64,000 bases of DNA, taken from an uncultured delta proteobacterium. GTDB taxonomy: Bacteria > Desulfobacterota > Syntrophorhabdia > Syntrophorhabdales > WCHB1-27. The translations under genes and the position numbers were made by a program. The stretch lies in NCBI GenBank assembly GCA_963749525.1, contig CAVVNC010000029.1:140-64139 (forward strand), given 5' to 3'. Of the stretch, positions 17,895 through 53,300 are shown piece after piece (within the stretch, counting starts at the first letter, position 1; each line of letters begins with the position of its first letter). Under the pieces are notes generated by a model. It did not search any database and was not told where the DNA came from. It worked only from the letters and a program-made list of their open reading frames with translations.

Positions 17895-17896
17895 TA

Positions 17897-32600: not shown

Positions 32601-34008
32601 GCAGAGATACCCCGAGCCTCTTGGCCTGCTCTTCGATAAAGCTTCCCGTGCCTGCAGCGCACGCGTAATTCATGACCGAAAAAGTTACGCTGCCCTCCTT
32701 GAGCACGGTAAATTTTGCATCCTGCCCCCCGATTTCGATGATCGTGTCCGTCTCCGGGCCCAGATGATATGCCGCCCGGGCATGGGCAGTGATTTCATCG
32801 ACCGCATAGTCGGCCCGGACGACCTTTTGGATGAACTTGCGACCGGACCCGGTCGTTCCGGCGGCAAGAATCCTGAAGTGTACGGAAAAGCGTTGCTCCA
32901 GCCCGGCGATGGCCCTGGTCAGTTTCTGAACCGCTGAAATCGGCTGACCGCCGGTTCGGGCATAGAGTCCCACCAGGACCGCCTTCTCGCGATTCATGAG
33001 GGTTGCCTTGGTGCTGGTAGAGCCAATGTCGATTCCAAGATAGCACTCGATTTCCTCACCCAGGCTCAGAGGCTCATACACGTCGATTTCCACGTCATCG
33101 GTCACCGATGATTCCCAGGTGTCAAAATCGGGGACCTCCGATACCACGCTCGACAGGGGCGGATATCCGTAGGACCTGATGGCTGCCGTGGTTCTCTCGA
33201 GCAGCGCATGAACAGGGATCACTGCCGGTACTTCTCCCTCGTTCCGCTGTTTCAAAGCGATCAAGGCAGCGCCGATTGCCCCCATGTACTCGCCGTCGGT
33301 GAGTGCCTGCAGCGGGCGGCCCACTGCTTCCTGCAGGTACTGAAGAACCTTCCGGTTCTTACTGACACCACCAGCCACAACGACAGGATCTAATAATTCG
33401 ACGCCGTGAAACAGGGTATCGTAAATATTCTGGGCAACTCCGCGGGCCAGTCCGGCAGCGATTGCCGGCAGGCCATAGCCCTGCTGCTGCATATGGACCA
33501 GGTCCGTCCGGGCAAATACCGCGCAGCGGGTGGCTATCCGAGGTGGGTCTCCCTGATAGCCCTCGCCGATGCTGCTCAGCTCCTCGCTGCCGGAAAGCCC
33601 GAGGCGGGATGCCTGCTGATCCAGAAAAGAGCCCGTACCCGCCGCGCAGGCAGAGTTGGTTATGTATTTGTGGTAGCGGCCCTGCCGGTCGAAAAGGATC
33701 AGACCGAAGGTTTCTCCGCCGATGGTGATGATGGCTCCCGGGTTGGGGACGAAGTGCTTGACTCCGGCGATAAGGGCTACCTGTTCATTGACCTCGACTC
33801 CGGCCCGGAAGAATTCTCGCCCTTTCTCCGTGACGACCCCGAAAACACTCGGCCGTTGCGCGGGCAGTTTGCCGAGCATCGTCTGGAGTGTCGCATAGAT
33901 ATTGCCCCTATGGAAAGAGTAATCCCGGTAGGTAGGCTGCCCTGTGCTATCGAGCAGGACTATCGCAATGGAGACCGTGCCAATGTCAATACCCGCGACG
34001 TGGCCCAT
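29671..34008 (-). CDS. giant fusion protein: two BcrAD/BadFG/HgdC-type (ASKHA) activase ATPase domains + Cys motif + DUF2229/dehydratase-like C-terminal half
   Basis: 1,445-1,447 aa intact; the second ATG (34008) has better SD spacing. There are two activase modules (GIDIGTVS...NSACAAGTGSFLDQQ...RCAVFARTD and GIDIGSTSTKA...NYACAAGTGSFIEEQ...DRCTVFMERD), each with the two [4Fe-4S]-bridging Cys positions. These are followed by CEYCKNHC...C and about 800 aa of uncharacterised domains. Confidence 0.85.
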   Translation of the reverse strand: MGHVAGIDIGTVSIAIVLLDSTGQPTYRDYSFHRGNIYATLQTMLGKLPAQRPSVFGVVTEKGREFFRAGVEVNEQVALIAGVKHFVPNPGAIITIGGETFGLILFDRQGRYHKYITNSACAAGTGSFLDQQASRLGLSGSEELSSIGEGYQGDPPRIATRCAVFARTDLVHMQQQGYGLPAIAAGLARGVAQNIYDTLFHGVELLDPVVVAGGVSKNRKVLQYLQEAVGRPLQALTDGEYMGAIGAALIALKQRNEGEVPAVIPVHALLERTTAAIRSYGYPPLSSVVSEVPDFDTWESSVTDDVEIDVYEPLSLGEEIECYLGIDIGSTSTKATLMNREKAVLVGLYARTGGQPISAVQKLTRAIAGLEQRFSVHFRILAAGTTGSGRKFIQKVVRADYAVDEITAHARAAYHLGPETDTIIEIGGQDAKFTVLKEGSVTFSVMNYACAAGTGSFIEEQAKRLGVSLHDYAALAIGAPAPLISDRCTVFMERDLNHLLSLQYSREELLAAALHSVRDNYLSKVAHVNKIGTRITFQGATAKNYALVKAFEQKLQKPITVSKFCHLTGAFGVCLKMADADLARESRFRKDLHAEQVVVDEYVCEYCKNHCKIKSIDLDGETLGWGYLCGRDEHDSGYRKKVASGFDLLRSHRRVFDVSAAAGAPSFEGEGNPFREFKDGGILSVARRPGFSLARLRNHIHFNLLELRRELFSSGIAPRHQPGADSTLKIGLPATLTMVEYLPLWELFFKRLGFTPVVTSADPKHMTRGKEITGAEYCTPLVEFHGHIRNLTPQVDFIFCPQLFEHASGKEAKSYCYYSHYAIPVVHNIPSLPLAGKVIAPVLAVNGNLDEMIRLIYLEFPEAMKEQVSFERVERAFSLAWDWFQERKKDLQELFRDQIGATNDIAVALMGRPYLILNQSLNKGIPDRLAEKGVQSFYMDMIPVDEREIDAARDFVRLNHWHYGNRIIKTAEIVAKTKGLFPIYLTAFKCSPDSFVLSYFKDIMDYYRKPYLILQLDEHEAGEGYDTRLEAAIETFRNFRGAATQKIRPRIDLKRSFADKTYLLSDYDHLNSRLMQAILNRSGIKAELIEQTPETISRSIQLNDGQCLPISILTQGILSTIQTLSLRPEQVAIFCNADSRLSCNLPQYPVMLKQTLTKMGHGLEQVEVRVSPYLPTDLPLELLVDLYRAWLLSGLLQKMTRQVRPREKTAGATDRLVQKAEGSLFAAFRKGTSREEVFQEIVKDLEAIEKTDVRLPQVGIVGDVYVRDNEIFNQDLIRGLERAGAEAVTIPFIDTMGLLITTYFKSQWLDGSYLGLLRDKALYGTLSLLGRKLTRIARPLLKDEGSTLNRDPLTYLQHHGLSIRHGGETSENLLKVYYLHENYPDLKFIVHVYPLFCCPGLISEAIYKKVERDLSIPIVSIAYDGTQADKNKILEPYLRISSSPK

Positions 34009-34213
34009 GCGCATGCTCCTTACACCGCATTTGCCTGCTATTAGCCCGTATTCTCAGCGCTGAAAGGAGCAATGGGAGGCAAACAAGTCTGATGTTGCGT
34101 CTAATATAGACCAAAAAGGAGGTTTATACAAACGCGGTTATTATACCCGGGGGCGAGGCGTTACCCCCGTGCAGGAGCAAGTAGGCCCCTCAACAAAGAT
34201 GATGCTCCACGGT

Positions 34214-35356
34214 CTATCCTGGTTGCGGGGAGGGTTTTCCCATTTCCCGGAGCCAGCGGTAGTGTTCGGCCAGTCCCGTCCAGAAAGAACGGTGCTGGGC
34301 GTATTTTACGCCGAATTCGCCGCACGTCTCCTCGACGATCTTCGCCATTCCGGGGTAGTTTATGTGACAGATAGAGGGAAAGAGATGATGCTCGAGGTGG
34401 AAGTTCAAGCCTCCGAAGAACCACGTCCTAACCCGGCTGTGCCGGTCGTAATCGAGCGTCACCTGGGCCTGGTGCACAGCCCATGGGTTCTCCATCATAT
34501 GAGAGGCTTTGTCGGGCAAGGGGAAATCGGAAAGGCCCGTGCAGTGCGGCAACTGGAACACGACGGAAAGCGGTATGCCCATAATGAGGACAACTACCGC
34601 GTAGTAAAAGAGGATAATCGAGACGGGGTGGCGGGATAGGGGCAGCACGAGTGCCAGGGTAAAAAAGAGCGCCTTCCCTCCGATGAAAACAACAAGATTC
34701 CCACCTTTGGGCCGGGGCGTCGGATGCGTGTGGATCCTGCCGGATACGGCGTGGTGAAAATCGCTGTACAGATGGAATTTCACTACGAGGAAAGCGTAGA
34801 GCGCCCACACATATAGATGCTGCCAGCGATGGAACCATCGCCTTTTCTGGTGCGGCGCAAACCGGGTAAGCTTGCCCAAATCGATATCGGGATCGTAGCC
34901 CACTATGTTGACGTAGTTGTGATGATACATGGCGTGCTTCCAGTGCCACACATAAGAACTGGCGCCGATCAGGTCCAGCGTCATGGCCGCCAGTCTGTTG
35001 ACCCACCGGCGCTCCGAAAAGGCCCGATGCCCTCCGTCATGCATGATGTTGAACCCTATCGCCGTCATGGAGAAGGCAAGCACAACGGCGGTTATCAGGC
35101 CCTGCCACAGGTTCTGCGCCCAGAACACCAGTGCCAGATATGAGAGAAAAAAGCAGGATAGGATGATTCCAGATTTCAGATAAATTCGCCGACCACCGCG
35201 TTGTGGCCGGCCCACCGTCCGAAAGTACTCGTTCACGCGGCGACGCAACTCGGTATGAAACTCCGCGCTGCTGTCGAACTTCAGGCCCTGGACGGCCGGC
35301 GGATAGCGGCTTGGATTTCTATCGGCTCTCTCGAACCCTTCCTGCTTTTCCGGCAT
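34214..35356 (-). CDS. membrane fatty-acid desaturase family protein (di-iron, three His boxes)
   Basis: His boxes HDGGH, HWKHAMYHHNYVN and HLEHHLFP with TM segments. It is co-directional with the giant gene, 200 bp upstream of it. Confidence 0.85.
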   Translation of the reverse strand: MPEKQEGFERADRNPSRYPPAVQGLKFDSSAEFHTELRRRVNEYFRTVGRPQRGGRRIYLKSGIILSCFFLSYLALVFWAQNLWQGLITAVVLAFSMTAIGFNIMHDGGHRAFSERRWVNRLAAMTLDLIGASSYVWHWKHAMYHHNYVNIVGYDPDIDLGKLTRFAPHQKRRWFHRWQHLYVWALYAFLVVKFHLYSDFHHAVSGRIHTHPTPRPKGGNLVVFIGGKALFFTLALVLPLSRHPVSIILFYYAVVVLIMGIPLSVVFQLPHCTGLSDFPLPDKASHMMENPWAVHQAQVTLDYDRHSRVRTWFFGGLNFHLEHHLFPSICHINYPGMAKIVEETCGEFGVKYAQHRSFWTGLAEHYRWLREMGKPSPQPG

Positions 35357-35756
35357 AGCTCGCTATCAGTATAACATAAGCAAACGGACGAGGTTAGGCA
35401 AAGACCATTCGCTTGCCCTCGATAAGCCGATTGTTGTCTTGGCTTTTTTCAGCACGTAATTCTCGTATGTCATTGGGGCGCCACCTCACTGTTTCGTAGA
35501 GTATGAAGACGGGCATCTTCCCGTAAGCACAAGTCTCCGTTCCGACTCCCGAAAGGCATCTTTCGGCCGGCAATCGTTATCCTGTGATCAGTAGGCCCCC
35601 TGCGAAGCGCGGGAACAAGGGAACACAAACTCTGACATCACCCCGAGAATCGGCTGCGCTGGTCTTCGGGATCCGGGGTTTCCGGAGGGGCACTACTCAG
35701 TTTTTAGATACGCGCCGCAAATACTCGATCCTGGGCTTTTAGGGTAATCTGGCCGG

Positions 35757-36923
35757 TCAAAACAGGGAAGATCGTTTTCCGAGGGGTGTTGGTTTCCCCA
35801 GGGTCATTTTGAGATATTCAAGCATAAGTTCCTGCAACATCTGCTCTTTTGATGTGTCGACAAAGGATTGTTTTTCGTCTGCTTGGGCCTTGTTTATCTT
35901 ACCGGCTTGGATAGCGGAAGATCGTAGCGCCTGCTGCAAAGCAGCATATTCGCCGGCCAGTCCTGTTGCCGGCATGTGTGAAAGCGATTGGTGGACCAAG
36001 GCCAACTGACTCGGAGCAGGAAGACAAGGCGACTCGAGAACCATTCTGAAATTCTGAGCATAACGTTTCATGCCTCCCATCATGTGACCCGGTTTCACAA
36101 AATTGATACCTGACCAGCCGGCTCGAAGCCATTGAAAAGTTCCAGTCCTGACCATGGCAGCCGAGCCCTCTGATTCGACATAGACGACAACCGAAGAATA
36201 GTCGTAGATGTAAGTCTTTGCCCATCCGAGCCCGGTTTTCATGGTCCCTGGTTCACTTGAATAGAAGTAGGTCCAGTCATTGTCATTGCCCAGAATAACC
36301 CCCTTTTTCCCGACTTGTGATGCATCGATCAGTGCCGATATGGAAACTAACACCTCTTGGCCCTTGTGGTTAAAGAGGATAAGGGTCCTTTTCAGGTCAT
36401 ATTCATGATAAACGCCGGTAGAGAGATCAGGAGTGCTGGAGTCATGCTGCAGACCGCGAATGATGACCGGAGCCCCGTCAGGAGGAACCACGCCCCACCT
36501 GCTCGGCATTTCATGCATGTCACTTTGAGGATTGGACCAGATCGAGTAGCGTAGGGAAGATGGTCTCGTGATGTTTGACGGAATGAGAGAACTGTAGCAG
36601 TACTCCATGAATCGGGGAAAGGCGACCCTTGTGTCGAATTCATAATAGACCCCGTAACACCGATTACATTCTGGGAGGGAGCATTCCCTGCCATTCTTCG
36701 AGATCATGACGTAGTCCGCCAGGGTAGCAATCGCCTGTAGATCAGGATCGGTTTTGGAATCGCCACAATACTGGACGAGACGCACTGCAGCGTCGCTCAC
36801 AAGGCGGGGGATGTCCGTGAGAGAAGCAGCGGGAGCGGGCGGGTATGCCGCGAGGAGCGAGAACCCGAGCAGAAAGCAGCGCCATATCTGCGAAAACTGC
36901 CAAAAATGAGTCTTTTGATTCAC
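35757..36923 (-). CDS. hypothetical secreted protein (388 aa)
   Basis: Long ORF in a lower-GC patch with a GTG start. The N-terminal hydrophobic segment IWRCFLLGFSLLAAYPPAPAAS looks like a signal peptide. I recognise no family. Confidence 0.55.
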   Translation of the reverse strand: MNQKTHFWQFSQIWRCFLLGFSLLAAYPPAPAASLTDIPRLVSDAAVRLVQYCGDSKTDPDLQAIATLADYVMISKNGRECSLPECNRCYGVYYEFDTRVAFPRFMEYCYSSLIPSNITRPSSLRYSIWSNPQSDMHEMPSRWGVVPPDGAPVIIRGLQHDSSTPDLSTGVYHEYDLKRTLILFNHKGQEVLVSISALIDASQVGKKGVILGNDNDWTYFYSSEPGTMKTGLGWAKTYIYDYSSVVVYVESEGSAAMVRTGTFQWLRAGWSGINFVKPGHMMGGMKRYAQNFRMVLESPCLPAPSQLALVHQSLSHMPATGLAGEYAALQQALRSSAIQAGKINKAQADEKQSFVDTSKEQMLQELMLEYLKMTLGKPTPLGKRSSLF

Positions 36924-37056
36924 GTTGAGACATTCACCGTTAATGGTCTATTTTGCTAAAAGCATAAGAGCTGAAAGCTCTTCGTGTCAACGGAATATTG
37001 CGTCGTATCACCGCCTGGTCCCGGGCATGAATTTTTCCCGGTACGTTTCTTTTTGA

Positions 37057-37638
37057 ATGGCGTGTGGGGCAGTCGATGCCTTTCGGGCAAGACGAGGTAA
37101 CGGTTTTAGCCATCGGGTCGATGCCCGGATAGATGCTGCTGTCAGGGAAGTCTTCCGCATGCCGAGAGAACGGCAATCTCTGCCCTCACCCGCTGTCGGC
37201 GCGAGCTATCTGCAGGGTATCAAAAAACAGGTCGAAGAGTTTTGGATCCCGGAAATCTCAGCATTGCTGGATGAATTCAGCCGGCCGGGCTCAATCAAGG
37301 ATGGTCAGCAGTTCCACAAACTCATTCAGGGGGCTCAAAGAATTGCTGGGGCAGTTGTTGGCAGTCCGGGCAGTTTGTTCCGTTACCAGATGCGAGGGTT
37401 TCCCGTAATTACGGATCAGAAAACCAACCAGACTCTCTACGCACCTCCCTTTCCCGCAATAGAGGTGATCAGCTACCCTCTTGAACTTATTCTTGGAGAG
37501 GTGGTTAGGTCGGCTAAGACTTTGCAGGACAATCTGGTGGACTGGAGCAGGCAGCGTCGCGAGATGAGAAAAGACTACGTCGCTTATTTGACCGCAGTCG
37601 AGCAGACGCGATCAGCAAGGCTTCTTAATTACTTTTAG
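37057..37638 (+). CDS. hypothetical protein (start uncertain)
   Basis: ORF divergent from 35757..36923. An internal Met (MPRERQSL...) is an alternative start. I recognise no family. Confidence 0.3.
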   Translation: MACGAVDAFRARRGNGFSHRVDARIDAAVREVFRMPRERQSLPSPAVGASYLQGIKKQVEEFWIPEISALLDEFSRPGSIKDGQQFHKLIQGAQRIAGAVVGSPGSLFRYQMRGFPVITDQKTNQTLYAPPFPAIEVISYPLELILGEVVRSAKTLQDNLVDWSRQRREMRKDYVAYLTAVEQTRSARLLNYF

Positions 37639-37879
37639 TACTTGTAATTGCTTTCACGGTCCTATTGACTTTGTCATCTGGCAGAATTGTCCATCTGGCT
37701 CGTCTGCTCCTCGCTCTGATTCGAGGCTAAGGAGGGGTAAACAAAGAAGATTACGGAGCCTATGCGATGGACCATCGCAGTCTATTTCAAAGCGGGGCCG
37801 ATTCTCCCTCACGATATCGCTTCTTAATGGCAATCGTCGTAGATCCCGACTGCCGACGCACCTGCACTTGTAGGTGAAG

Positions 37880-38521
37880 CTCTCGGGTCTTTTTCCGATG
37901 CCCACACAGCCCCGCGATGAATAACGAATGCCCTCTCAAGCTTTGCGTGGGGGATGGGGGCGTGAGGGCCTAAAACGACGAGCGATGCAGTTCTGCTGGC
38001 TCGGTGAGTCACGAAGGAGGTAAAGCCGGGACCGGCACTGGTAGGGAAAAACCCTCTCGTACCTTTGTTGAGCCTCTGAACAGCTCGAATTTTCATTTGC
38101 CGAACAAGCCCGGGCGACACCACAGGCTTGAGCTGACACCGAAAGGCGCCGCCTAAAAAGAGGACGCAGATCTAGGTCGGCGGATGTTGAATCCGTCCGG
38201 ACAATTGCCCTTGACCGGGGCATCCGGGCTCCCTATACTCCTTATCATGAAGGGCAGGCCTTATCGTGGCGATGCCGTGAGCCAGCCTGATCAGAGGATA
38301 GTCCCGATGGCCGGAGCAAGGCGCGAATTCCAGGATTTTGCAAAGCCGGCCGGTCCGGTGTGCAATCTGGAGTGCCGCTATTGCTACTATCTGAAGAAGA
38401 AAGACCTCTACGAGAAGGGCGACCCGCTCCGTATGTCCGACGACATCCTGGAGGAGTACATCGTCCAGCACATCGATGCCTCGCGGGGTGAGGTGATCAG
38501 GTTTTCCTGGCACGGCGGGGA
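37880..38521 (+). repeat. direct duplicate of the anSME upstream region + first ~72 codons (copy 1; partner 43321-44022)
   Basis: 38352-38521 is identical base for base to 43853-44022 (170 bp). About 38100-38351 is similar with scattered mismatches. 37880-38100 is only loosely similar, with indels. Confidence 0.75.
38211..38239 (+). promoter_or_regulatory. candidate sigma70 promoter (TTGACC-17-TATACT) of the truncated anSME copy
   Basis: cccTTGACCggggcatccgggctcccTATACTcc. The same hexamers and spacing are conserved at 43714-43742. Confidence 0.5.
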
Positions 38522-38711
38522 AGGGATCGCCCTGAAAATCCGATGCGTCTCACATAAGGAATCTGACAATTCAATGGGCGTCTTGCCTTACTATGGCGGG
38601 AGCAATTTGATAGCCTCAGAAGCGGTGCTTACTTTTCGGGGATCAGATGCACAGGGTGCCCCCAACTCCCACCATGGGAGGGAAGTCACTGTCGCGGCAG
38701 GGCTATCATGA
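38307..38711 (+). pseudogene. truncated duplicate of the anaerobic sulfatase-maturating enzyme gene (first ~72 codons, then unrelated sequence)
   Basis: MAGARREFQDFAKPAGPVCNLECRYCYYLKKKDLYEKGDPLRMSDDILEEYIVQHIDASRGEVIRFSWHGGE is then followed by non-homologous EGIALKIRCVSHKE... up to a stop at 38711. Confidence 0.7.
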
Positions 38712-40075
38712 TCTCAAGTCCTCTTTCCCTGTTTGCCGCGTCAATCGTGCCTCCGAGTCTTTCGACGGCTTTCTTGGCGATGGTCAGACCCAATCCCGAA
38801 CCTGCGGCAGCAGATCGTTTTGACCGGTGAAAGGGATCGAAGATTCGAGAAAGGTCTTCCCGGGACAGTTCTTCAGAGGTATTCGTGATGCGAATCTCGG
38901 CCGCATCAGGCTTCCACGCCACATGGGCAGAAATGTCTCCTCCATCAGGACAGAATTTGGTTGCGTTATCGAGAACGTTTATGAGCGCAAGGCGCAGCGT
39001 CTCTTTGTCTGCAAGACAGGATCCGCCCTGGGAAAGGTCGGCGGCGACATGAAGGCCCCTTCGTTCTATGACAGGACGAAATTTCTCCATCAACTCTGTT
39101 ATCAGATCAGATGGATCGAGAGGTTCAGGTCGGAGCGGGGATTGCCCCATGTCCAGCTTCGACAAATCCAGGATGCGACCGATTAGGCCGTCAAGTTCAT
39201 CTATGTCTTCCCGAATTCCGTCGAGATATCCCGCCAAATCCTTTGTGTCTGCAACTCCCCGCGCCGCCTTCTCATGAAGCACTTCTTCCGCAATCCGAAT
39301 TCTTGTCAGGGGCGCTCGTAGTTCATGGGATATGTTTGCGGTAAGCTCTTTTCGGCCCTTTATCATGCCTTCGACCTTGTCCGCCATGTCGTTAAACGTC
39401 CGGGCAAGATCGCTGATCTCATCCTTGCCCCGCACGACAACCCTGTGAGAGAGATCCCCTTCCGCAAGTCAGGGCGGCAGATAAGCGGAGCTGCCTGATC
39501 CGTCTGGTGATAAGCCGGGAAACGGGAATTGCGGCCAGGGCGACAATAGTGCCTATCATGAGCAGACCTAGGGCAAAAAGGCCCCTGGGAGGAGAGAACG
39601 CCGGTCTCTTGAAGAGGATGTGGAGGTCTCCTGCGTATTTTCCCGAAGGCTCCAGGGGAATAACAGTGTGCACATCGACATCTCTGAGGGCATGGAGCCT
39701 GAAAAACCTGTGCCTCCGGGGGCGGCCTTTTCCTGAGACCTCAGACAGATCAGGGGGTTCACCGGAAAAAGATTTCAGCGCCAGCCTGCCGTCACGTCGT
39801 ATCAGCCATACCTGCGCCCCGGAAAGCCTGCCGAAATCTGTAATAAATTCTTTGAGAAGGGTATTTTCAGACAATTCGGTATCAGGAGAGGACAGGATCT
39901 TGTCCTCGGCAATTCCTTTGACCGACTGGACCTTTGATTTGACGAATTCCTCGAACCGGACTGCAAAATGGCGCGCAGGAAGCATGATGAAGAGAAAGAA
40001 GACGAGGATTTCCGTGATAAAGATAACCACAAGAAAGGACAGGAATATCTTTGTATACGTGGACCTGAGCTTCAC
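38686..40075 (-). pseudogene. sensor histidine kinase (TM-periplasmic-TM-HAMP-HisKA-HATPase), one +1 frameshift
   Basis: The GTG start overlaps the regulator stop (GTGA). The N-terminal ORF ends ...IRQLRLSAAL, and the HAMP continues in another frame as LAEGDLSHRVVVRGKDEISDLARTFNDM. The H-box is SHELRAPLT and the G-box is GSGLGLTIA. There is an extra base at about 39469. Confidence 0.8.
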
Positions 40076-40777
40076 GGAGAATCCACCAGCATGTAGCCTG
40101 CCCCCCATATCGTCTTTATTCGTTTCGGCGCACTGGGATCGGCCTCTACTTTGGACCTGAGCTTGCTGATGTGAACGTCAATACTTCTGTCGAAGGCGGT
40201 GAAATCACGCCCGCGGGCAAGGGTCATGAGCTGGTCGCGACTCATCACCGTGTTCGGGTTCTTCATGAGCACTTCGAGAATCCTGAACTCCGCGGTGGAC
40301 AGTTCCATTTCCCTGCCCTCTACGACGGCGGTCTGTTTTGCCGTATTCAGCGAGATCCCGGCAGCATTGATAATGTTGTGTCGGGTCTTTTCGCCGCCGC
40401 CTCTGTCAACGTTTGCGGATCTTCTGAGAACCGCCTTCATTCGGGCAAGAAGCTCCCTGGGATTGAACGGCTTCGGCAGATAGTCGTCCGCGCCCAGTTC
40501 GAGCCCTAACGATGCGGTCCGTATCGTCTCCCCTGGCCGTGAGCATGATAATGGGCAACCCATGGTCCTTCCTGATCTCTTTGAGTACTTCCAACCCGTC
40601 TCTTCCCGGCAGCATGATGTCCAGTATGACCAGATCGGGTGAATCTGTCGACAGGACGCCCAGCACGTCGGCGCCGTCCGCCCGGCACGTGGTGTGAAAT
40701 CCGTGATCTTTCAAATACTCTCCAAGAAGCTTGCGCAGTTTCTCGTCGTCATCAATGATTAGAACTCTGTTCCCCAC
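40072..40777 (-). pseudogene. OmpR-family response regulator, one +1 frameshift
   Basis: The receiver (RVLIIDDDEKL...DLVILDIMLPGRDG...PIIMLTARGDDTDRIV) is then shifted by an extra base at about 40507. The rest reads GLELGADDYLPKPFNPRELLARMKAVLRR plus a winged-helix C-terminus (...RIKTIWGAGYML). Confidence 0.8.
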
Positions 40778-40910
40778 GGATGTCACCCCTTTTTGCACTC
40801 TTTTACATCTATCTTACACTTCTTTTCACATCCGCAAAACTGTCTTAGCATTCTGCCGTTATCCTGTTTTTAGCGTGGGCGACGGCCCATAAAGAAATCA
40901 GGAGGGAGCA

Positions 40911-41447
40911 ATGAAGATACAAAGACGTTTCGCGGTTATCGGCGGTGCAATAGTCATCATCATGGTCTTTGCGGGCCTGGGGATTGCCGAGGTATTTGGA
41001 TCAGGAGGAAAGTTTTGCTGCAGCCCGCATTTCGGCCCGAACGGCTGCGGGTTCCGTCGCTGCCACGGGTTCGACGGAGATATGCCCGGTTTCGTGTTGA
41101 AGCGGCTGGACAATAAGATAGAGGAGCTGAACCTGACCCCCGCCCAGAAGACAAAGTACGATGAGCTCCGCGCCCACTTGGAAGAACACTTACTGGCTGC
41201 TAAAGAGGACAGGAAGAAGTTCAAGGAGATCGTTCGCAATGAACTGGCAAAAGAATCGCCCGACGTTGCGGCTTTGAATGCCATGATGAAGAAGAAGATC
41301 GAGGGCGTTTCCGCAAGCATGCAGAATGACCTCGACCTCTTTGCATCCTTCTATTCGACCCTTGACGAAGGCCAGAAGCAACGGGTAATGGCCGGGATTC
41401 GGAAAAGGATAGCTGCTATGGACGCTTGCCGGGAGGAAACACGGTGA
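40911..41447 (+). CDS. Spy/CpxP-family periplasmic protein (LTxxQ motifs)
   Basis: RBS AGGAGGGA and an N-terminal TM/signal segment. LNLTPAQKTKYDELR and LDEGQKQRV are LTxxQ-type motifs. It is divergent from the two-component genes, as with cpxP-cpxRA. Confidence 0.65.
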   Translation: MKIQRRFAVIGGAIVIIMVFAGLGIAEVFGSGGKFCCSPHFGPNGCGFRRCHGFDGDMPGFVLKRLDNKIEELNLTPAQKTKYDELRAHLEEHLLAAKEDRKKFKEIVRNELAKESPDVAALNAMMKKKIEGVSASMQNDLDLFASFYSTLDEGQKQRVMAGIRKRIAAMDACREETR

Positions 41448-42118
41448 GAGATTTCACGAGGAGAGAGTTTGTGCGGGCGGGCTCGGTGTTGGTGGGGCTT
41501 GCTGCGAGTCTTCTTGTGCCGGGCGGCAGAACCCTGTCCGTAGGGAAGGCAAATGCTGCCGGAGCCGACTTGGCCGAATCGAGCTGCAACTCCAGGGACA
41601 AGGTAGGCAAAAAGGTTCTTGTTGCTTATGCAAGCCGCTGCGGGACTACCGGCGGTGTGGCGGAGGCTGTGGGGCAGACCCTGCGCGCAACAGGGGCATC
41701 GGCAGACGTACGCTTGATAGGAAATGTGGATGATCTCGGTCCCTATCGGAGCGTGATCGTGGGGAGTGCCATTCGCGCGGGTCGATGGCTGCCGGAGGCG
41801 GTGGATTTCGTGAAGAAGCATCGTGACCGGCTGGGTCGGGTGCCTACCGCCTACTTCGTCGTGTGCGTGACCATGAAGGATGATACGCCGGAGAACCGCG
41901 GCAAAGTCTCGGCCTACCTCGACCCGGTGCGCAAAGAGGCGCCGCAGATGCAACCGGCGAACACGGGCCTTTTCGCCGGAGCGGTCGATTTCAGCAAGCT
42001 CTCCTTCGTGTACAGGTCGATGTTGAAGGCAAAGGGAGTCCGGGAAGGCGACTTCCGCAACTGGGGCGCCATCGGGGCCTGGGCTGCCGATGTCGCCCCG
42101 GCACTTCTCGGGACGTAG
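41444..42118 (+). CDS. flavodoxin-domain protein with a twin-arginine (Tat) signal peptide
   Basis: GTG 41444 lies 6 nt after GGAGGA. VRDFTRREFVRAGSVLVGLAASLL...ANA-AG is Tat-like. KVLVAYASRCGTTGGVAEAV...IVGSAIRAGRW fits flavodoxin_5/HemG-like proteins. Confidence 0.7.
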   Translation: MRDFTRREFVRAGSVLVGLAASLLVPGGRTLSVGKANAAGADLAESSCNSRDKVGKKVLVAYASRCGTTGGVAEAVGQTLRATGASADVRLIGNVDDLGPYRSVIVGSAIRAGRWLPEAVDFVKKHRDRLGRVPTAYFVVCVTMKDDTPENRGKVSAYLDPVRKEAPQMQPANTGLFAGAVDFSKLSFVYRSMLKAKGVREGDFRNWGAIGAWAADVAPALLGT

Positions 42119-42590
42119 CTTTCCAATGACCCTACGTGGCTGTCCTGGTCCGAATTGACAGTCCTCACAAAACCCGTGAGGGACCTTAGCAAGGCGCTCC
42201 ATGGGTTACTGTCCGGACCCGCTGCGCCGTACTCACTTTTCCCGCGGAATGAGACAGGGCTATTCACCGTTTTGAGGGATATTCCTTGACCGGTCCCTGC
42301 CTCTGATCATAGAACCGGAACAGCAAGGGGGCACTGATGGACGTGGTATCCGAGAGCTGGTGGCGAATCCTGGTTGTGGGGCTTGCTTGCCTTGATTGCC
42401 CGTGTGCCCATGCTTCAACTCCTGCCGCTAAGTATTAATTATGAGAAGGAGTTTGCGGAAGGGGCCACCATAGGAAGGCTCCAGGTGGATTCTAAATATC
42501 CTTTAGAACCTTTCTTTTCTGCCTTTCTAAAATTGACCTTTTGATATTAATACCAACTAAATTCTTAAAACTAAAAAGGAGGAAATGATT

Positions 42591-43097
42591 ATGACTACAA
42601 GAAAATCTAAGTGGATTATCTTCGGGATTTTTGTGATCTCAGCCTGGGTTCTGGGGTCTGCCATTCAGGCGGGGGCACAGACTGCGGTCATAAATGATGT
42701 TCTGGCGGCCTGGAATTCACATGATACGGAGAAGACGGCTTCCTTTTACACGGACGACATCGTCTATGAGGATATAGGCTTCAGTAAGACCGTGCGCGGC
42801 AAGGAAGAGCTTAGAGCCTTCATCAACGATTTTTTCGCTACATTCCCGGACCTCGATTTTGAACTGAAGTCCTCTTTCATCTCCGGCAATTGGTACTGCG
42901 CAGAATGGGTTTGGAGCGGCACTCACAAAGTCGACATGCCCGGGTTACCCGCCACCGGCAAGAGATTCTCAATACGGGGAGTCTCTGTCGGAGAATTAAA
43001 GGAGGGTAAGATCAAGAGGAACTCTGACTATTATAATAAGATGGATTTTTTGCAACAAGTCGGTATCAAACTCGTACCCGCATCCCCTCCTAAATAG
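42591..43097 (+). CDS. SnoaL-like (NTF2-fold) ester-cyclase family protein with signal peptide
   Basis: AT-richer gene. AGGAGG lies 8 nt before ATG 42591. There is a signal peptide (WIIFGIFVISAWVLGSAIQAGAQ). ASFYTDDIVYEDIG...GKEELRAFINDFFATFPDLDFEL fits the SnoaL_2 pattern. Confidence 0.7.
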   Translation: MTTRKSKWIIFGIFVISAWVLGSAIQAGAQTAVINDVLAAWNSHDTEKTASFYTDDIVYEDIGFSKTVRGKEELRAFINDFFATFPDLDFELKSSFISGNWYCAEWVWSGTHKVDMPGLPATGKRFSIRGVSVGELKEGKIKRNSDYYNKMDFLQQVGIKLVPASPPK

Positions 43098-43320
43098 CAC
43101 TATCTCGCCATTGAGAGGAGGCCGATAGAGGTAACGCTGATTGCGAACACATATCCTACACGGGGTTGCTGATTTCAATAAGGTTAGTATCCCCCCTGGC
43201 GACTTCGGCAACCCCGGTGACGCTATGCTCCCTTTCTTATCTTGTGACGGTGGGTCAGCATGAATATTTTATTCAGTAATCGTTAACTTTCGGAGCGACC
43301 TCTTTGGAATAGTTGATGGA

Positions 43321-44022
43321 CTCTTGAGCCTTTTCCAATGCCGTTACATTCCCACGATGAGCCTTACGGGAATGGATAAGCTATTATGGGGACTCGTGTA
43401 AGCATGACGCTCCCAGCGAACAGCCGAGAAACCAAGGAAAAGGAGACGGCTCGATGATAAGCCGTCCCCTCGGATTCCGATGTGATTTCTACAGATTTGA
43501 CACAGCCGTGATGGGAATCATTACGCCAAATTGTTTTGGTGCAACAGTACGAGAGACCTCTTCGGTGAGTAAAGCAACCGGTTAGAACCGCCCGCCTTTT
43601 GATCACGCAAGCCCGGGCGTCATTGCAAGCTTGAGATGACACCGGAAGGCGCCTCCTAAAAAGAGAACGCAGATCTAGGTCGGCGGATGTTGAATCCGGC
43701 CGGACAATTGCCCTTGACCGGCGCATCCGACCTCCCTATACTCCTTATCATGAAGGCCTGCCTTATCGTGTCGATGCCGGGGCCGGCCTGATCAGAGGAT
43801 AGTTCCCATGGCCAGAGCGACCCGCGAATTCCAGGTTTTTGCAAAGCCGGCAGGTCCGGTGTGCAATCTGGAGTGCCGCTATTGCTACTATCTGAAGAAG
43901 AAAGACCTCTACGAGAAGGGCGACCCGCTCCGTATGTCCGACGACATCCTGGAGGAGTACATCGTCCAGCACATCGATGCCTCGCGGGGTGAGGTGATCA
44001 GGTTTTCCTGGCACGGCGGGGA
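43321..44022 (+). repeat. direct duplicate, copy 2 (upstream region and 5' end of the intact anSME gene)
   Basis: See 37880-38521. The offset of the identical part is 5,501 bp. Confidence 0.75.
43714..43742 (+). promoter_or_regulatory. candidate sigma70 promoter of the anSME gene (TTGACC-17-TATACT)
   Basis: cccTTGACCggcgcatccgacctcccTATACTcc, 66 nt upstream of ATG 43808. It is conserved in the duplicate. Confidence 0.55.
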
Positions 44023-45064
44023 GCCGACCGTCCTCGGGCTCGACTGCTTTCGGAAAATCGTGGCGCTCCAGCGCAAGTACCGGCCTGAAGGCAAGCGCAT
44101 CGCCAACGGCATTCAAACGAACGGCACCCTTCTCGACGAGGAGTGGTGCCGTTTTCTCGCGGTGGAAGGTTTTACCGTAGGGATCAGTCTGGACGGCCCG
44201 AAGGAGATGCACGACCAATACCGCGTGGGCAAGAGGGAGACCCCAACTCACGAACAGGCAATGCGCGGATACAGGCTCCTTCGCGACCATGGAGTCCCCT
44301 GCGATGTGCTCTGCGTGGTCCACGCGGGAAATGTGCGATATCCCGTCGAGGTATACCGGTTCTTCAGGGAGATAGGGGCCGCCTACGTTGGATTCCTGCC
44401 TCTGGTCGAGCATTCGCCGGACAGGCGGACCGGAAGCGACCTCACCGTGCCCCCTGAGGCCTTCGGCGATTTCCTCTGCACTGTCTTCGACGAGTGGCTG
44501 AGCGGGGACGTCGGGCGCATCAACGTGCAGATATTCGAGGAGGCTATTGCAACGGCCTTCGGGCGGGAACACGGGCTCTGCATCTTTCGGGAGACCTGCG
44601 GCGACATCCCCGTGGTAGAGCATAACGGCGACTTCTTTTCGTGCGATCACTTTGTCGACGGGGAGCATTGCCTCGGGAATATCAGGGAGACTCCTCTCAC
44701 CCGATTGCTGGACAGCCCGGCGCAGAGGGAATTCGGACAGGTCAAAGCGGACAGGCTGCCCCGTTTCTGCAAGACCTGCGAGGTCCTCTCCATGTGCAAC
44801 GGAGGCTGTCCGAAGGATCGCTTCCTTTGCACACCGGACGGCGAGGAAGGCCTCAACTATCTGTGCGCCGGATATAAGCGCTTCTTCACCCATTGCCGCC
44901 CCTTCGTCGCCCAGGTGGCGGCCCTGTCGCGGGTGCAGAATATGGAAGGCGAAATGACATCGGCGCGCGTAGGGACCGCGGGAGGCGGCGCCAAGACGGG
45001 CCGCAACGATCCGTGCCCGTGCGGCAGCGGTAAGAAGTACAAGAAATGCTGCATGCCCAAGTGA
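43808..45064 (+). CDS. anaerobic sulfatase-maturating enzyme-like radical SAM/SPASM protein with C-terminal SEC-C motif
   Basis: CNLECRYCYY (CxxxCxxC) plus SPASM-type Cys clusters (CGDIPVVEHNGDFFSCDH, CKTCEVLSMCNGGCPKDR). The C-terminal NDPCPCGSGKKYKKCC is a SEC-C zinc motif. Confidence 0.85.
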   Translation: MARATREFQVFAKPAGPVCNLECRYCYYLKKKDLYEKGDPLRMSDDILEEYIVQHIDASRGEVIRFSWHGGEPTVLGLDCFRKIVALQRKYRPEGKRIANGIQTNGTLLDEEWCRFLAVEGFTVGISLDGPKEMHDQYRVGKRETPTHEQAMRGYRLLRDHGVPCDVLCVVHAGNVRYPVEVYRFFREIGAAYVGFLPLVEHSPDRRTGSDLTVPPEAFGDFLCTVFDEWLSGDVGRINVQIFEEAIATAFGREHGLCIFRETCGDIPVVEHNGDFFSCDHFVDGEHCLGNIRETPLTRLLDSPAQREFGQVKADRLPRFCKTCEVLSMCNGGCPKDRFLCTPDGEEGLNYLCAGYKRFFTHCRPFVAQVAALSRVQNMEGEMTSARVGTAGGGAKTGRNDPCPCGSGKKYKKCCMPK

Positions 45065-45089
45065 TCGGCTCACCGCGTTTATGTCGGAT

Positions 45090-45327
45090 CGGCCGACCGC
45101 ATGGAGAAATCGCGAGCAATTAATGGGGCTCAGCGCCCCCTCCGGCAGCATAAGCCGCCGGAGTCTCCCCCCTCATCCTCGCTTGCGCTCGGTTCGCGCC
45201 CTCTTCACCACGTGGCCGCAGATATACGAAAAGTATCATCTTCGGCCGACGTGGTTCAGATTGCATCCAAACCTCACGCGATCGTTTTTTCCAAGACGGG
45301 AAAAACGATCCTTGATCCCTCCATGCG
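45090..45327 (+). repeat. interspersed intergenic repeat, copy C (partial W, then Y 45125-45200, then X 45214-45327: module order permuted relative to copy A)
   Basis: ggggctcagcgccccctccggcagcataagccgccggag.ctcccccctca matches Y of copy B. ggccgcagatatacgaaaagtatcatcttcggcc...ggttcagattgcatccaaacctcacgcgatcgttttttccaagacgggaaaaacgatccttgatccctccatgcg matches X of copy A. Confidence 0.65.
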
Positions 45328-45340
45328 CTCATCCATCCGT

Positions 45341-45377
45341 GCCGGGGGTATCAGCTTACGCTGCTGATACCCCCGGC
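45341..45377. other. perfect 15-bp inverted repeat/hairpin between convergent genes
   Basis: gccgggggtatcagc-ttacgct-gctgatacccccggc. There is no U-tract on either strand. Confidence 0.6.
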
Positions 45378-45727
45378 AGGTACAGAAGAATGCATGTATG
45401 ATCCCGGGGTATAGGCTCCGGGGAAGCTCTTGTCATCTCGGCCCGTGCGTGGGCCAAGATGACAAGAGGCAACATCATGTTTCGGCATATAGGAGGCGCT
45501 GCCTTGTCTCCATGAGATAGCTCCCCTATCAGTTCCTCGGCGTATGGTTCCTCAATGAGCGGATCATCGTGGAGGCTCCGGGGACCCGTCAGCGGAAAGG
45601 CGAGCGGTGCCGGAGCACGGGCGACTGACGGCCGGGCTATGCGGTCATGGTAGGGCGTTCCCGGATTCACTCCTTGGGGAGCCAAAGCCCTTCTCGGCCG
45701 ACCAATGCGCGTCTGACGTAATACGTT

Positions 45728-46573
45728 CTATGTCTTAAGCTTTTCCTTGAAAAAGTCTATGGTTCGCTTCCACGCGAGGTCGGCGGCTTGCTTGTTGTAC
45801 CTGGCGAGGTTCGTATCGTTGTTGAAAGCGTGCTGGGCGCCTTCGTACATGTAGAGCCTGTAATCGACCGAGGCTGCTTTTAGCGCCTCGACGTATGCCG
45901 GGATGCCCGGGTTGATCATCTCATCGATGCCTGCGTAATGGAGAAGCAGAGACGCCTTTATCTTGGGGACATCCGCGGACGCGGGCTGCCTCCCGTAGTA
46001 CGGGACCGCTGCCGATATATCGGGTGAGTTAACGGCGAGCTGGTTTGCCATGCCTCCGCCCCAGCAGAAGCCTACGACGCCGACCTTCCCGGTAGACATG
46101 GGATGGCTCTTCAAATACTGAACCGCTGCAATGAAATTCTTTATCGTCGATTGCTGGTCCAGTTCGCTAATCAGGGCTATCGCCTTGTCCTCGTCTTTCG
46201 GGGTCCCCCCGACAGGAGAGAGGGCATCAGGGGCCAGCGCCAGAAAACCCTCCAGGGCTACGCGTCTCGCGACATCCGCGATGTGTGCGTTGAGGCCCCG
46301 ATTCTCGTGGATGACGAGAACGCCGGGGAGTCTCGCATCTCCTTTGGGCCTCGCGAGCTTGCCGCGCACTTCCCCTGTGGCGCCTTGAAATGTGATGTCC
46401 TCCGTGTAGAGGCGGGGATCGTCCTTCGGAACCAGGTCTGCCCTCGCGTATCCCTTCTCCAATGAGACGAGAAGAGCGTTCGCCGCTACGGTTCCTCCCA
46501 TGAGAACGGATAGCCGTTTCAGGAATTCGCGGCGATCCAGGGACCCGCGACTATGCTCGTCGTAGAGGTTCAT
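45728..46573 (-). CDS. dienelactone hydrolase family protein with Tat signal
   Basis: ATG 46573 follows GGAGGGA (the ORF is open further upstream). SLDRREFLKRLSVLMGGTVAANA is Tat-like. VLVIHENRGLNAHI...VGVVGFCWGG...H fits the DLH catalytic pattern. Confidence 0.8.
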   Translation of the reverse strand: MNLYDEHSRGSLDRREFLKRLSVLMGGTVAANALLVSLEKGYARADLVPKDDPRLYTEDITFQGATGEVRGKLARPKGDARLPGVLVIHENRGLNAHIADVARRVALEGFLALAPDALSPVGGTPKDEDKAIALISELDQQSTIKNFIAAVQYLKSHPMSTGKVGVVGFCWGGGMANQLAVNSPDISAAVPYYGRQPASADVPKIKASLLLHYAGIDEMINPGIPAYVEALKAASVDYRLYMYEGAQHAFNNDTNLARYNKQAADLAWKRTIDFFKEKLKT

Positions 46574-46842
46574 GGCTTCCCTCCGGTGGATGGTCAATTC
46601 TTGGAGGAGCCCCTCCATATCTAAGGGATCCGGGTTAGCCGGCTTGGCTCTCTCCGTCCTTATGAATTTTTCCGCCGCCTCACTGAAAGGTCTGTTCTCG
46701 GCCATGGCGAATTACCTCCGATCGGGTTTAGGAGTCTTCGACTATCATAGCAAACCACAGTCAAACAGTAAAGAGCAGGGCCCGAAAGGCTTCCGCATCT
46801 TTTAAGGGAAAGGACCGATCGCGCCGGAGGCGGGGGACTGCA

Positions 46843-50391: not shown

Positions 50392-53300
50392 ATGGTTAGG
50401 ATTGGCCTTGACATAGGTTCTGTAAGCGTGAACCTCGCCGTGGTCGATGAAAAGGGAAGCGTAGTTGAAGACAGATACGTCCGCCACATGGGCAAGGCAA
50501 TGCACAAGGCGGCCGAGTTGCTTGAGGAGATGCAGACCGTCTATGGTCGCGAGATCGAATTCGTGGCCACTACCGGGACCGGCTCAAAGACATTCGCCCC
50601 TCTCGCGGGCGCCTCTTTTACGAACGAGATTATCGCCCTTACGAAGGCCTTCCACTACCTCTATCCCCGTGTGGGAAGCGTGATAGACATAGGGGGGGAA
50701 GACTCCAAGTTCATCATATTCGACAAAGACACCCGCAATGGGGCCTTAAGGATCAAAGACTTTTCCATGAACACCCTCTGCGCGGCAGGCACGGGCTCCT
50801 TCCTCGACCAGCAAGCATCGAGGCTCGGCTTCACCATCGAGGAGTTTGCGGAGGTTGCCCTGAAATCGAAGAACACACCGAGGATCGCAGGGCGGTGCAC
50901 GGTCTTCGCGAAATCGGATATGATCCACCTCCAGCAGATAGCGACGCCCGACTACGACCTCGTGGCAGGCCTCTGCTTTGCCCTTGCCCGTAATTTCAAG
51001 AGCAACATAGCCAAGGGTAAAGAGGTGAGAAAGCCCGTTGCCTTCATTGGCGGGGTGGCGCAAAACGCGGGTATGCTCAAGGCGATAAAGGGAGTCTTTC
51101 TCCTGGAAGACGACCAGCTCATCGTGCCCGAGCATTTCACCTCCATGGGCGCCCTCGGGGCGATCTACGCCGTCCTCGACGATCCCGCGTTGAAGCAGCA
51201 GTTCACGGGAGTGGAGAAGGTGAGGGAGCACCTGGCAAAGACGGAAGTCACGGAGTCCCACGAGCCCCTCGTCATATCGGAGAGGAACCTCAATATCGTC
51301 TACGAGGTGAAGAAGCCGAAAGAGAAGGTAAAGGCGTATCTCGGCGTCGACGTGGGCTCCATCAGCACGAATGTCGTGGCCATCGACGAGGATTGGAATG
51401 TCCTCTCCAAGCGGTACCTCATGACTGAAGGGCGGCCCCTGGAAGCGGTGAAACGCGGCCTCGACGAGGTGGGGGCGGAGATAGGCGATTTCGTCGAGAT
51501 CATGGGTGTGGGCACCACGGGCTCCGGCCGGTATCTCACGGCCGATTTCATCGGCGCGGACCTCGTGAGGAACGAGATCACGGCCCAGGCCGAGGCGGCA
51601 ATAGCCATAGACCCCGAGGTGGACACCGTCTTCGAGATCGGCGGGCAGGATTCGAAGTACATCAGCATCGACAACGGGGTGATCGTCGATTTCGAGATGA
51701 ACAAGGCCTGCGCCGCAGGCACTGGCTCTTTCCTCGAAGAGCAGGCGGAAAGACTGGGCGTCTCCATCAAGGAAGAGTTCTCGAAGCTCGCCCTCTCGGC
51801 GAAGGGCCCCACGAGGATGGGGGAGAGGTGCACGGTATTCATAGAGTCGGACGTGATGCACTGCCAGCAGGGAGGTGCCCACACGGACGATATCGTTGCG
51901 GGCCTCTGCTATTCCATAGTGCTCAACTACCTCAATAAGGTGGTGGGAGATAGAAGGGTGGGAAAGAAGATCTTCTTTCAGGGCGGGACCGCCTTCAACA
52001 AAGGGGTGGTTGCAGCCTTCGAGAAGGTGTGCGGCAAGCCCATCACCGTGCCCTCCCATCATGATGTGACGGGCGCCATCGGTGTTGCCATACTCGCCAT
52101 GAAGGAGAAAGACTGGGAGAAGAGCACCTTCAAGGGCTTCGACCTGAGTAAGAGGCCCTACGCGATCGATACCTTCGAGTGCAAGGGATGTGAGAACCTG
52201 TGCGAGATCAGGAGGGTCACGTGCGAGGGTGAGAAGCCCCTCTACTACGGGAGCCGGTGCGAGAAGTACGACGTGGTGAGGCACGTGAAGACAGTGGAGA
52301 AGACAGACCTCTTCAAGATCAGGGAAGAGCTGCTCCACAACATGTACGACCGCAATGTCGACGGCGAGAAGATCGGCATACCGAAAATCCTCAACATGCA
52401 CGAGCTGCTGCCTTTCTGGCGCAGTTTCCTGACGGAGCTTGGCTTTTCCGTCGTCCTTTCCGATTCCACGAACAAGAAGGTGATCAAGGACGGCGTGGAG
52501 AATATCATCGTCGAATCCTGCTTTCCCATCAAGCTTGCCCACGGCCACATACTGAACATCGTGGGCAAGGGGATCAACAGGGTCTTCATGCCGAGCGTCA
52601 TAGACATGAAGAAGCCTTCCGAGAGCGTGGCGGGCAGCTTCGCCTGCCCGTATGCCCAGTCGCTCCCCTATACGGCGAAGGCCTCCATCGACTTCGAGGA
52701 GCTGGGGGTCAAGATGGAGTCGCCCATCGTCTACTTCGGTCAGGGAAGGAAGAAGACCCTCTCCAACCTCGTCGCCTTCGGGAAGAGGCTCGGGAAGTCG
52801 AGGAAAGAAGTCGAGCACGCCTACAACATCGCGAGCGATATCCAGGACCGTTTCGCCCGCAGGTGCCTTGACGAGGGGATGAGGTTTCTCGCGGACATTA
52901 AGCCGAACGAGAAGGTGATGGTCCTCGTGGGGAGGCCGTACAACAGCATGGACTCCGGCGCCAACCTGAACGTGCACAAGAAGCTCCTCGACCTCGGCGT
53001 CGCGTCCATCCCGATAGACATGCTCCCCCTCGACAAGGTCGAGGCCGACGAAGACCTGAAAGACATGTACTGGGGGTACGGCCAGAAAATCCTGAGGGCG
53101 GCAAAGATCGTCAAGTCCCATCCCAACCTCTACGCGGTCTATGTCACGAACTTCGGGTGCGGTCCCGATTCGTTCATCACCCATTTCTTCAAGAAGATCA
53201 TGGACGGAAAGCCCTTCCTCCAGCTGGAGATCGACGAGCACAGCGGAGACGCAGGGCTCATCACCCGCCTGGAGGCCTTTCTCGACAGCATCAAGAACGC

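Follow-up and report, generated by a model that had tools for sequence, protein, structure and literature searches.

The window considered here is a stretch of 64,000 nucleotides from contig CAVVNC010000029.1 (assembly GCA_963749525.1) of an uncultured Syntrophorhabdales bacterium of the lineage WCHB1-27. In this window, the promoter region and the first 72 codons of a gene for an anaerobic sulfatase-maturing enzyme (anSME) are found twice in the same orientation, and a two-component regulatory operon with its neighbors lies between the two copies. How did one genome come to carry the beginning of this gene twice, and what has the repetition done to the DNA between and around the copies? The best explanation, which we regard as probable, is that an old remnant of the anSME 5' end (copy A) and the corresponding part of the intact gene (copy B) act as direct repeats and recombine with each other by both gene conversion and crossover.

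The anSME 5' end as a direct repeat

The elements of the repeat and of the gene from which it derives are the following.

38105-38521, plus strand: repeat copy A, comprising upstream sequence, promoter, leader, and the first 72 anSME codons, delimited by alignment to copy B.
43608-44022, plus strand: repeat copy B, the start of the intact anSME gene with its upstream region, the promoter at 43714-43742, the leader, and 72 codons, delimited by alignment.
43808-45064, plus strand: intact anSME-family radical SAM/SPASM gene with a SEC-C tail, assigned by TIGR03942 and by the Pfam domains of an 89% identical homologue.
38211-38239, plus strand: promoter-like site TTGACC-17-TATACT of copy A, facing the 3' end of the kinase gene, recognized as the motif kept upstream of anSME orthologues.
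38307-38711, plus strand: chimeric open reading frame (ORF) of 72 anSME codons and 62 read-through codons that overlaps the kinase stop, from the comparison of ORFs and translations.
38352-38521, plus strand: 170-bp tract of copy A that is identical to copy B in the alignment, a putative gene conversion tract.
38521-38522, no strand: junction at which anSME codon 72 meets the 3'-flanking sequence of the kinase gene, with sister-strain equivalents at 38341/38617 and 38422/38684 (window-equivalent coordinates).

Copy A measures 417 bp and copy B 415 bp, their starts are spaced by about 5,501 to 5,503 bp, and 389 of the 415 aligned positions are identical. An earlier note on this DNA had described a direct repeat of 640 to 700 bp with a spacing of 5.5 kb; the repeat and its spacing are real, and the length has to be reduced to 417 bp. 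The same note was right about the last 170 bp (38352-38521 = 43853-44022), which the alignment shows to be free of any difference, and about the right end of the homology, a sharp stop after ...CACGGCGGGGA. All 26 mismatches and both 1-bp indels are confined to the first 247 bp of the repeat, where the identity is 89% (38105-38351) compared with 100% over 38352-38521, and the probability of 170 unchanged bases at the mismatch rate of the 5' part is about 1e-9.

The left end is abrupt too, since the adjacent 40 to 100 bp to the left of 38105 and 43608 align no better than shuffled sequences. An identity gradient with three levels, the most distal of them loosely similar, had been proposed and is rejected: the only likeness between 37880-38104 and 43321-43607 is a 52-bp patch with 71% identity at a different offset, which is at the level of shuffles (7 of 300 score equally high), and each of the two distal regions matches other sequences elsewhere and not the other one. 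The identity profile is a two-level step, about 89% and then 100%, and not a gradient. With defined ends and a similarity that is significantly higher than expected by chance, the two copies represent a segmental (partial-gene) duplication.

The intact gene of copy B encodes a protein of 418 amino acids that scores 438.1 bits against TIGR03942 (curated equivalog cutoff, 349.45) and contains the motif CNLECRYC (radical SAM CX3CX2C) and a SPASM domain; by these sequence matches it is a member of the anaerobic sulfatase-maturing enzyme family. Its nearest relative in the protein search is the anSME of locus L059 (89% identical). A scan of a genome collection with the anSME protein returned only relatives with at most 76% identity, none of which had the block of genes between the copies upstream, and exact-protein look-ups for anSME, for the SnoaL-like protein of the block, and for a homologue of hyp193, a protein encoded to the left of copy A, gave no record.

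The reading frame of copy A starts with the ATG at 38307 and differs from that of copy B by three substitutions within its first 10 residues, one of them (V10D) in the conserved QVF. Past codon 72 the sequence is unrelated; here the frame overlaps the stop of the kinase gene, which is convergent with it, and the resulting chimeric ORF has only a subthreshold Radical_SAM match (profile positions 4 to 56 of 166). Judged by its sequence, copy A is a dead, nonfunctional remnant of the anSME 5' end, and this truncated copy of 72 codons is paired with one that leads into an intact gene, the configuration of a duplication remnant. In the annotation of metagenome-assembled genomes (MAGs), the orphan promoter and the 134-codon chimeric ORF of copy A should accordingly not be taken for a radical SAM gene.

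The promoter TTGACC-17-TATACT reported in the earlier note was found in both copies. It belongs to the anSME gene, because CCTTGACCGG...CCTATACTCC is conserved 92 to 103 bp upstream of anSME orthologues of relatives whose proteins are only 65 to 75% identical. Conservation across phyla was considered and rejected, as the motif is confined to Syntrophorhabdia-like relatives and two other MAGs. An extended promoter and leader motif, CCTTGACCGG-N13-CCTATACTCCTT-CATAAAAGG...TATCGTG, is present at 43712-43807 and 38209-38306 and also occurs 92 to 103 bp before the ATG in loci L002, L003, L006 to L008, L012, L017, L018, and L041. Its conservation exceeds the bare need of a -35 and -10 region and may reflect an operator or a leader element; a scan of 36500-45500 with Rfam detected no RNA family, and the conserved leader does not correspond to a known riboswitch. 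The leader of L059 (positions 36 to 62) and of L080 contains a tandem duplication of a 27-bp unit, TATCGTGTCGATGCCGGGGGCCGGCCTC, that is absent from the window; the unit itself includes a small hairpin (ATCG-TGT-CGAT).

Remnants of the anSME gene in sister strains

The block between the copies consists of five genes, followed beyond the anSME gene by a convergent hydrolase gene. The gene content of the block that had been read from the letters alone (kinase, OmpR-type regulator, Spy/CpxP-like protein, Tat-flavodoxin, and SnoaL-like protein) was confirmed by Pfam.

38686-40108, minus strand: histidine kinase (HAMP-HisKA-HATPase_c by Pfam), split by a +1-bp insertion at about 39468; intact with 462 to 473 aa in sister strains.
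40072-40798, minus strand: OmpR-type response regulator (Response_reg and Trans_reg_C by Pfam), split by a +1-bp insertion at 40508; intact with 233 to 237 aa in sister strains.
40911-41447, plus strand: LTXXQ (Spy/CpxP-family) protein gene by Pfam, divergent from the regulator-kinase operon.
41426-42118, plus strand: Flavodoxin_5 protein gene by Pfam, with a Tat-like N terminus.
42585-43097, plus strand: gene for a secreted SnoaL-like protein by Pfam, in a patch of lower G+C content.
45728-46705, minus strand: dienelactone hydrolase (DLH) gene with a Tat signal, the conserved convergent partner of the anSME gene by neighborhood comparison and domain match.

About 30 sister-strain contigs from JGI, ENA, NCBI, and Logan were collected via 90% identity clusters of the Spy-like protein and of the hydrolase, and the public records of the sister proteins carry the name Syntrophorhabdales. 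In these contigs, the usual order is block, anSME, and DLH. Locus L070, e.g., contains without interruption the intact kinase (473 aa) and regulator (233 aa) genes and those for the LTXXQ protein, flavodoxin, SnoaL-like protein, anSME, and DLH; its identity with the window is 95.6% over 38617-45661 and reaches about 98% within the block. Remnants of the anSME gene beside the kinase gene differ among the strains as follows.

Window: remnant of copy B coordinates 43608-44022, joined to the kinase flank at 38522; to the left, hyp193 and a 15.5-kb segment.
L060, L062, and L063: remnant of about 43527/43633-43923, joined at 38684; to the left, an aldo-keto reductase (AKR) gene.
L070 and L072 to L075: remnant of 43712-43842, joined at 38617; to the left, a BrnT/BrnA toxin-antitoxin system.
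L061: no remnant, with a kinase flank that reaches 38551; to the left, GntR.

The three different junctions of the kinase-side remnants indicate an old rearrangement in decay. At the junction end, a single junction-spanning deletion, of 275 or 261 bp, suffices to derive each of the two shorter forms from that of the window. The copy A of L060 shows five private changes within 81 bp, 5 of its approximately 8 coding changes alter the protein, and its upstream part is 26 to 30% divergent from every copy B; the copy A of the window diverges by 11% from its own copy B. The simplest reading of these sequences would be one old rearrangement that predated the split of several Syntrophorhabdales strain groups and was then eroded differently in each lineage. 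It would have fused the anSME promoter, leader, and 72 codons to the region 3' of a Cpx-like two-component operon, which would account for the position of the kinase, regulator, Spy-like, flavodoxin, and SnoaL genes between copy A and the intact gene, and the remnant would have decayed subsequently by different deletions in different strains.

Several properties of the remnants speak against such a single origin. The copy A remnants of different strains do not group together: that of L070 has two differences from the copy B of the window and seven from its own copy B, and the copy A of the window is an outlier. The copy of L060 also reaches about 80 bp further to the left than that of the window, and the forms are not strictly nested on this side. 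Since the remnants are ungrouped, a single origin requires several later conversions or allele exchanges, or else the fragments formed recurrently, with an origin of the anSME 5' fragment next to the kinase gene in every strain group, e.g., by separate tandem duplications of block and repeat and their subsequent collapse. The existence of three junctions and the near identity of the L070 copy to a copy B allele would suit the latter. We nevertheless consider independent formation unlikely, because the upstream part of the L060 copy and the copy A of the window are too divergent for recent copies of the resident copy B, because single deletions suffice to derive the two other junctions from the window form, and because an unexplained hotspot would be needed for three independent events to strike one kinase 3' flank within 165 bp.

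The persistence of an orphan promoter raises the question of whether copy A is kept by selection, with an anSME-type promoter firing convergently into the kinase-regulator operon and exerting antisense control or transcriptional interference that is coregulated with anSME. All three remnant forms retain the -35 and -10 hexamers, the leader, and the start codon, the L070 fragment starts exactly at the -35 box, and no terminator-like site is predicted between the promoter of copy A and the kinase gene. Selection is nonetheless very improbable: L061 lacks the remnant entirely, zero changes in 12 hexamer positions are unremarkable at 12% divergence (P of about 0.2, an estimate), and the block, as well as the flavodoxin gene in some strains, is dispensable.

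Probable gene conversion, exchange of the block, and possible founding events

The old remnant is still paired with the intact gene, and the step in their identity indicates what has passed between them. Private changes of each sequence were counted with L059 as the outgroup.

38217-38351: copy A, 10; copy B, 6; L059, 7.
38352-38521 (170 bp): copy A, 0; copy B, 0; L059, 5.

In the 5' part, copy A, copy B, and L059 are roughly equidistant, i.e., copy A is as far from copy B as from the gene of another strain. The two parts of the repeat have different histories, with the discordant divergence that is characteristic of gene conversion. Over 38423-38521, the copy A of the window equals both the copy B of the window and that of L070 and differs at five sites from L065, L067, and L059. 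The 170 bp of copy A carry the window/L070 haplotype and not that of L065, L084, and L059, which makes the resident partner the matching sequence; the L060 copy likewise has the haplotype of its own group at 43920-43925 (GAGTCG versus GACCCG). Intragenomic gene conversion would explain both the step and the resident haplotypes: in a nonreciprocal exchange, the resident copy B sequence would have recently overwritten the 3' 170 bp of copy A. Together with the remnants of the sister strains, these data best fit one of the two histories offered in the earlier note, an old duplication whose coding end has been homogenized by gene conversion.

The step is weakened as evidence by the slow evolution of the 170-bp segment in all strains (2.9% divergence versus 8.2% in the rest of the gene). 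It shows five differences from L059 where about 15 are expected, and orthologous pairs of copy B display a similar step. Since the segment is slow-evolving in all strains, part of the step reflects rate heterogeneity; the complete lack of private changes in 170 to 180 bp needs another cause, because the dead copy A has 7% private change next door.

This cause could lie in the assembly. The window stems from a 64.6-kb MAG contig, contigs of metagenomes may be chimeras of several strains, and homogenization of the 170 bp during assembly or polishing is possible; the 170-bp identity, the window junction, or both would then be products of an assembly from mixed strains, in which copy A was overwritten by copy B reads or a chimeric join was created. 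Metagenome contigs were searched for exact matches to the window junction and to the 25 bp to its right; neither search produced a match, so that this junction has not been found in any independent assembly. The kinase and regulator genes each have a +1-bp frameshift, overlooked in the earlier note and absent from five sister strains, and that of the kinase gene points in the same direction: some sisters have G and others T at precisely this site, where the window has GT, and the insertion may thus be an erroneous consensus of mixed strains and not a genuine pseudogene mutation. An artifact behind the repeat is still very improbable. Analogous junctions between remnant and kinase flank occur in at least eight independent contigs (JGI, NCBI, and Logan), a junction into non-anSME sequence demands reads that contain it, and the 5' part of copy A has kept its 26 differences from copy B, which argues against a wholesale collapse. 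The long ORFs of the window (1,447, 1,388, and 1,144 aa) are intact, in agreement with a good overall sequence quality, and general sequencing error is accordingly an unlikely source of the frameshifts. We infer conversion rather than assembly.

In bacterial chromosomes, gene conversion is an established cause of concerted evolution between dispersed direct repeats, e.g., in duplicated tuf genes and rRNA operons. The present case resembles it in the two copies of the same orientation a few kilobases apart, in the identical tract beside diverged sequence, and in the haplotype of the own genome. It differs from conversion in tuf genes and rRNA operons in that the partner is a dead fragment of 417 bp and that the tract spans only 170 bp and reaches the end of the homology.

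The second type of exchange concerns the block as a whole. Divergence between the window and the group of L060, L065, and L084 was compared by region.

Block: 2.6% (109/4188).
Block, intergenic parts only: 3.9%.
ADH to AKR (left flank): 6.8%.
Rest of anSME: 8.2%.
Hydrolase to ccsA (right flank): 4.9%.
Repeat B, 5' part: 13.9%.

The block (109 of 4,188 positions) is significantly less divergent than the pooled flanks (442 of 7,449, or 5.9%; Fisher P = 3e-17), with the change-point at repeat B. The block has a younger shared ancestry than its flanks, which fits an exchange between lineages by homologous recombination and is the trace that reciprocal exchange would leave, and the 5' part of the repeat looks like a local hotspot of allelic mosaicism.

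Natural variants without the block were found in L080, L081, and L082, three long-read-style assemblies with the order MFS, ADH, AKR, anSME, (PAS kinase), hydrolase, hemC, and hemA. In these strains, the AKR gene is followed by a 164-bp spacer, one repeat, and the anSME gene, and in L060 the order is ADH, AKR, copy A, and then the block. The spacer between AKR and the repeat is 100% identical in L060 and L081/L082, and the right flank is 99.3% identical in L084 and L081. Between 43527 and 43770, the single repeat of L080 to L082 is of the L060 copy A type at almost every diagnostic site, and from 43803 on it is of the copy B type; it is the hybrid expected from a crossover between copies A and B. 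One hybrid repeat, the missing block, and near-identical flanks bear out the proposal that the block is excisable by homologous recombination.

Reciprocal exchange between A and B would remove the whole block, or reinstall it if donor DNA is available, and would in this way generate the presence/absence polymorphism within the species. The B-type right-hand diagnostic sites of the hybrids limit what can be concluded about loss, as they represent private changes of the L060 copy A; gain of the block from donor DNA by a block-less ancestor would therefore fit as well. Since an intrachromosomal deletion is mechanistically simpler, we favor loss and would call it roughly twice as probable as gain, which is a judgment and not a result. 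The hybrids are comparable to RecA-type deletion between direct repeats, i.e., the reverse of a Campbell-type integration, in the single hybrid repeat and the flanks that are 98 to 100% identical. Unlike in Campbell-type integration, there is no integrase, attachment site, or element-encoded function, and the repeats are pieces of a host gene.

Three routes could have led to the founding rearrangement, the first of them an insertion of the homology-facilitated illegitimate or the Campbell type. A donor fragment with the block, the copy B upstream region, and the anSME 5' end might have been inserted by a homologous join on the right and an illegitimate join at codon 72 on the left; alternatively, the block and the repeat might have been duplicated in tandem with subsequent deletion of the first block copy, or a full second paralog might have been truncated. 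Insertion of the block into the anSME gene or a paralog, the other history offered in the earlier note, is hence possible as an ancient founding event and not as a recent one in this genome. The first route corresponds to homology-facilitated illegitimate recombination, outlined in PMC3240628, in which incoming DNA is anchored by homology at one end and joined illegitimately at the other, and this mechanism has been proposed to leave orphaned gene pieces in type VI secretion system (T6SS) and Rhs loci of Vibrio (PMC5361080). In line with the outline in PMC3240628, the locus shows a seamless join into the intact anSME gene, an abrupt nonhomologous junction at codon 72, an orphaned fragment, and upstream regions of A and B that resemble alleles from different lineages. 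A homology-anchored insertion would also explain the 26 to 30% divergent, allele-like distal upstream parts of the AKR-linked versus SnoaL-linked copies. Unlike the orphans in PMC5361080, the fragment is a 5' end with a promoter and not a 3' end. No donor context was found for the left end, and the insertion is not distinguished from the second route, because tandem duplication and deletion give the same end product.

Remnants of repeats, concerted evolution, and deletion or insertion mediated by repeats are known forms of ordinary bacterial genome plasticity and do not constitute a new system. A more far-reaching proposal, that the repeats serve as a recombination handle by which a Cpx-like module moves among lineages without mobility genes and that copy A in addition contains a selected antisense promoter, is quite improbable. 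The locus provides a clean natural example from an uncultured anaerobic lineage of how the fragment of an old rearrangement may drive further change, here the local homogenization of sequence and the presence/absence polymorphism of a 5-kb accessory module. It also marks a region in which assemblies may break or collapse.

The Cpx-like module and the wider window

The layout of the block recalls that of the Escherichia coli Cpx envelope-stress locus, in which cpxP is divergent from cpxRA. Here as well, the gene of an LTXXQ-family periplasmic protein (28.6 bits; cutoff, 24.3) is divergent from an operon for an OmpR-type regulator and a HAMP kinase. The likeness is limited to architecture and Pfam family; unlike in E. 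coli, there are extra flavodoxin and SnoaL genes, and neither signaling gene is intact in this genome, both being frameshifted. The AT-richer patch that had been noticed at the SnoaL gene is real (G+C content of 0.45 to 0.50), and it is uninformative about this event, because the sister strains share the stretch with about 98% identity. A mobile element carrying the block was considered and rejected, given that the block contains no transposase or integrase gene and no terminal inverted repeats and that there is no tRNA gene in the window. A repeat of 417 bp is not a short target-site duplication.

In the strain group of L060 to L069 and L079, the flavodoxin gene has been lost by deletion of positions 41635-42322, and two short ORFs are left; L064 and L068 have a DUF4277-containing gene, possibly a transposase gene, after the flavodoxin remnant.

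The anSME gene is convergent with the gene of a Tat-signal dienelactone hydrolase (YghX-like, below the cutoff) in most of 58 loci, and the MAGs with this pair (loci L002 to L036) are labeled Syntrophorhabdia, Aminicenantes, Sedimentisphaerales, Bathyarchaeia, Bacteroidia, and others. The conserved pairing suggests that anSME may have its true functional counterpart in the hydrolase or in something connected with it. In L080 to L084, a 3.5-kb gene for a PAS-rich hybrid kinase (948 to 963 aa) lies between the anSME and hydrolase genes, and the window and L070 have only a repeat-rich spacer of about 660 bp at this position (45065-45727 in the window). The 3' flank of the anSME gene (45322-45396) contains a 34-nucleotide inverted repeat with 79% complementarity and a 7-nucleotide spacer. 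A 93-bp piece beside the hydrolase stop of L081 corresponds to 43321-43413 of the window, upstream of copy B.

With four different left flanks among the strains, the left side of copy A is a rearrangement hotspot. In the window, it is occupied by one further feature.

22605-38104, no strand: 15.5-kb segment specific to the window, bounded by the AKR gene and copy A and missing in L060 and L081.

In the latter two loci, only 164 bp separate the AKR gene from the repeat. The segment encodes a Mo-oxidoreductase, an IS110-family transposase (25754-27112), a GYD-domain protein, a desaturase, and a BcrAD/BadFG-type activase of 1,447 aa, a paralog of the one of 1,388 aa encoded at 50392-54558; it further contains two ORFan genes. 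No homologue of hyp193 other than itself was found among 5.8 billion proteins. The MFS, ADH, and AKR genes of the window are located at 17.4 to 22.6 kb, and an IS630-like element (HTH and DDE_3 ORFs) at 17895-19023 interrupts the MFS transporter gene, which is intact in L080 and L081.

Dispersed short intergenic repeats of a REP/MITE-like family with the hairpin TCCGGCAGCATAAGCCGCCGGA are present at 45115-45327, 17004-17208, 25284-25360, 54672-54740, and 856-910. A 55-bp piece upstream of copy A in L060 that resembles the anSME 3' flank had suggested former tandem anSME copies; this was rejected, as the piece belongs to a dispersed repeat of which the window has several copies. The REP/MITE-like family also occurs in sister strains, and in L060 a copy at 7355-7409 lies between the AKR gene and the anSME remnant.

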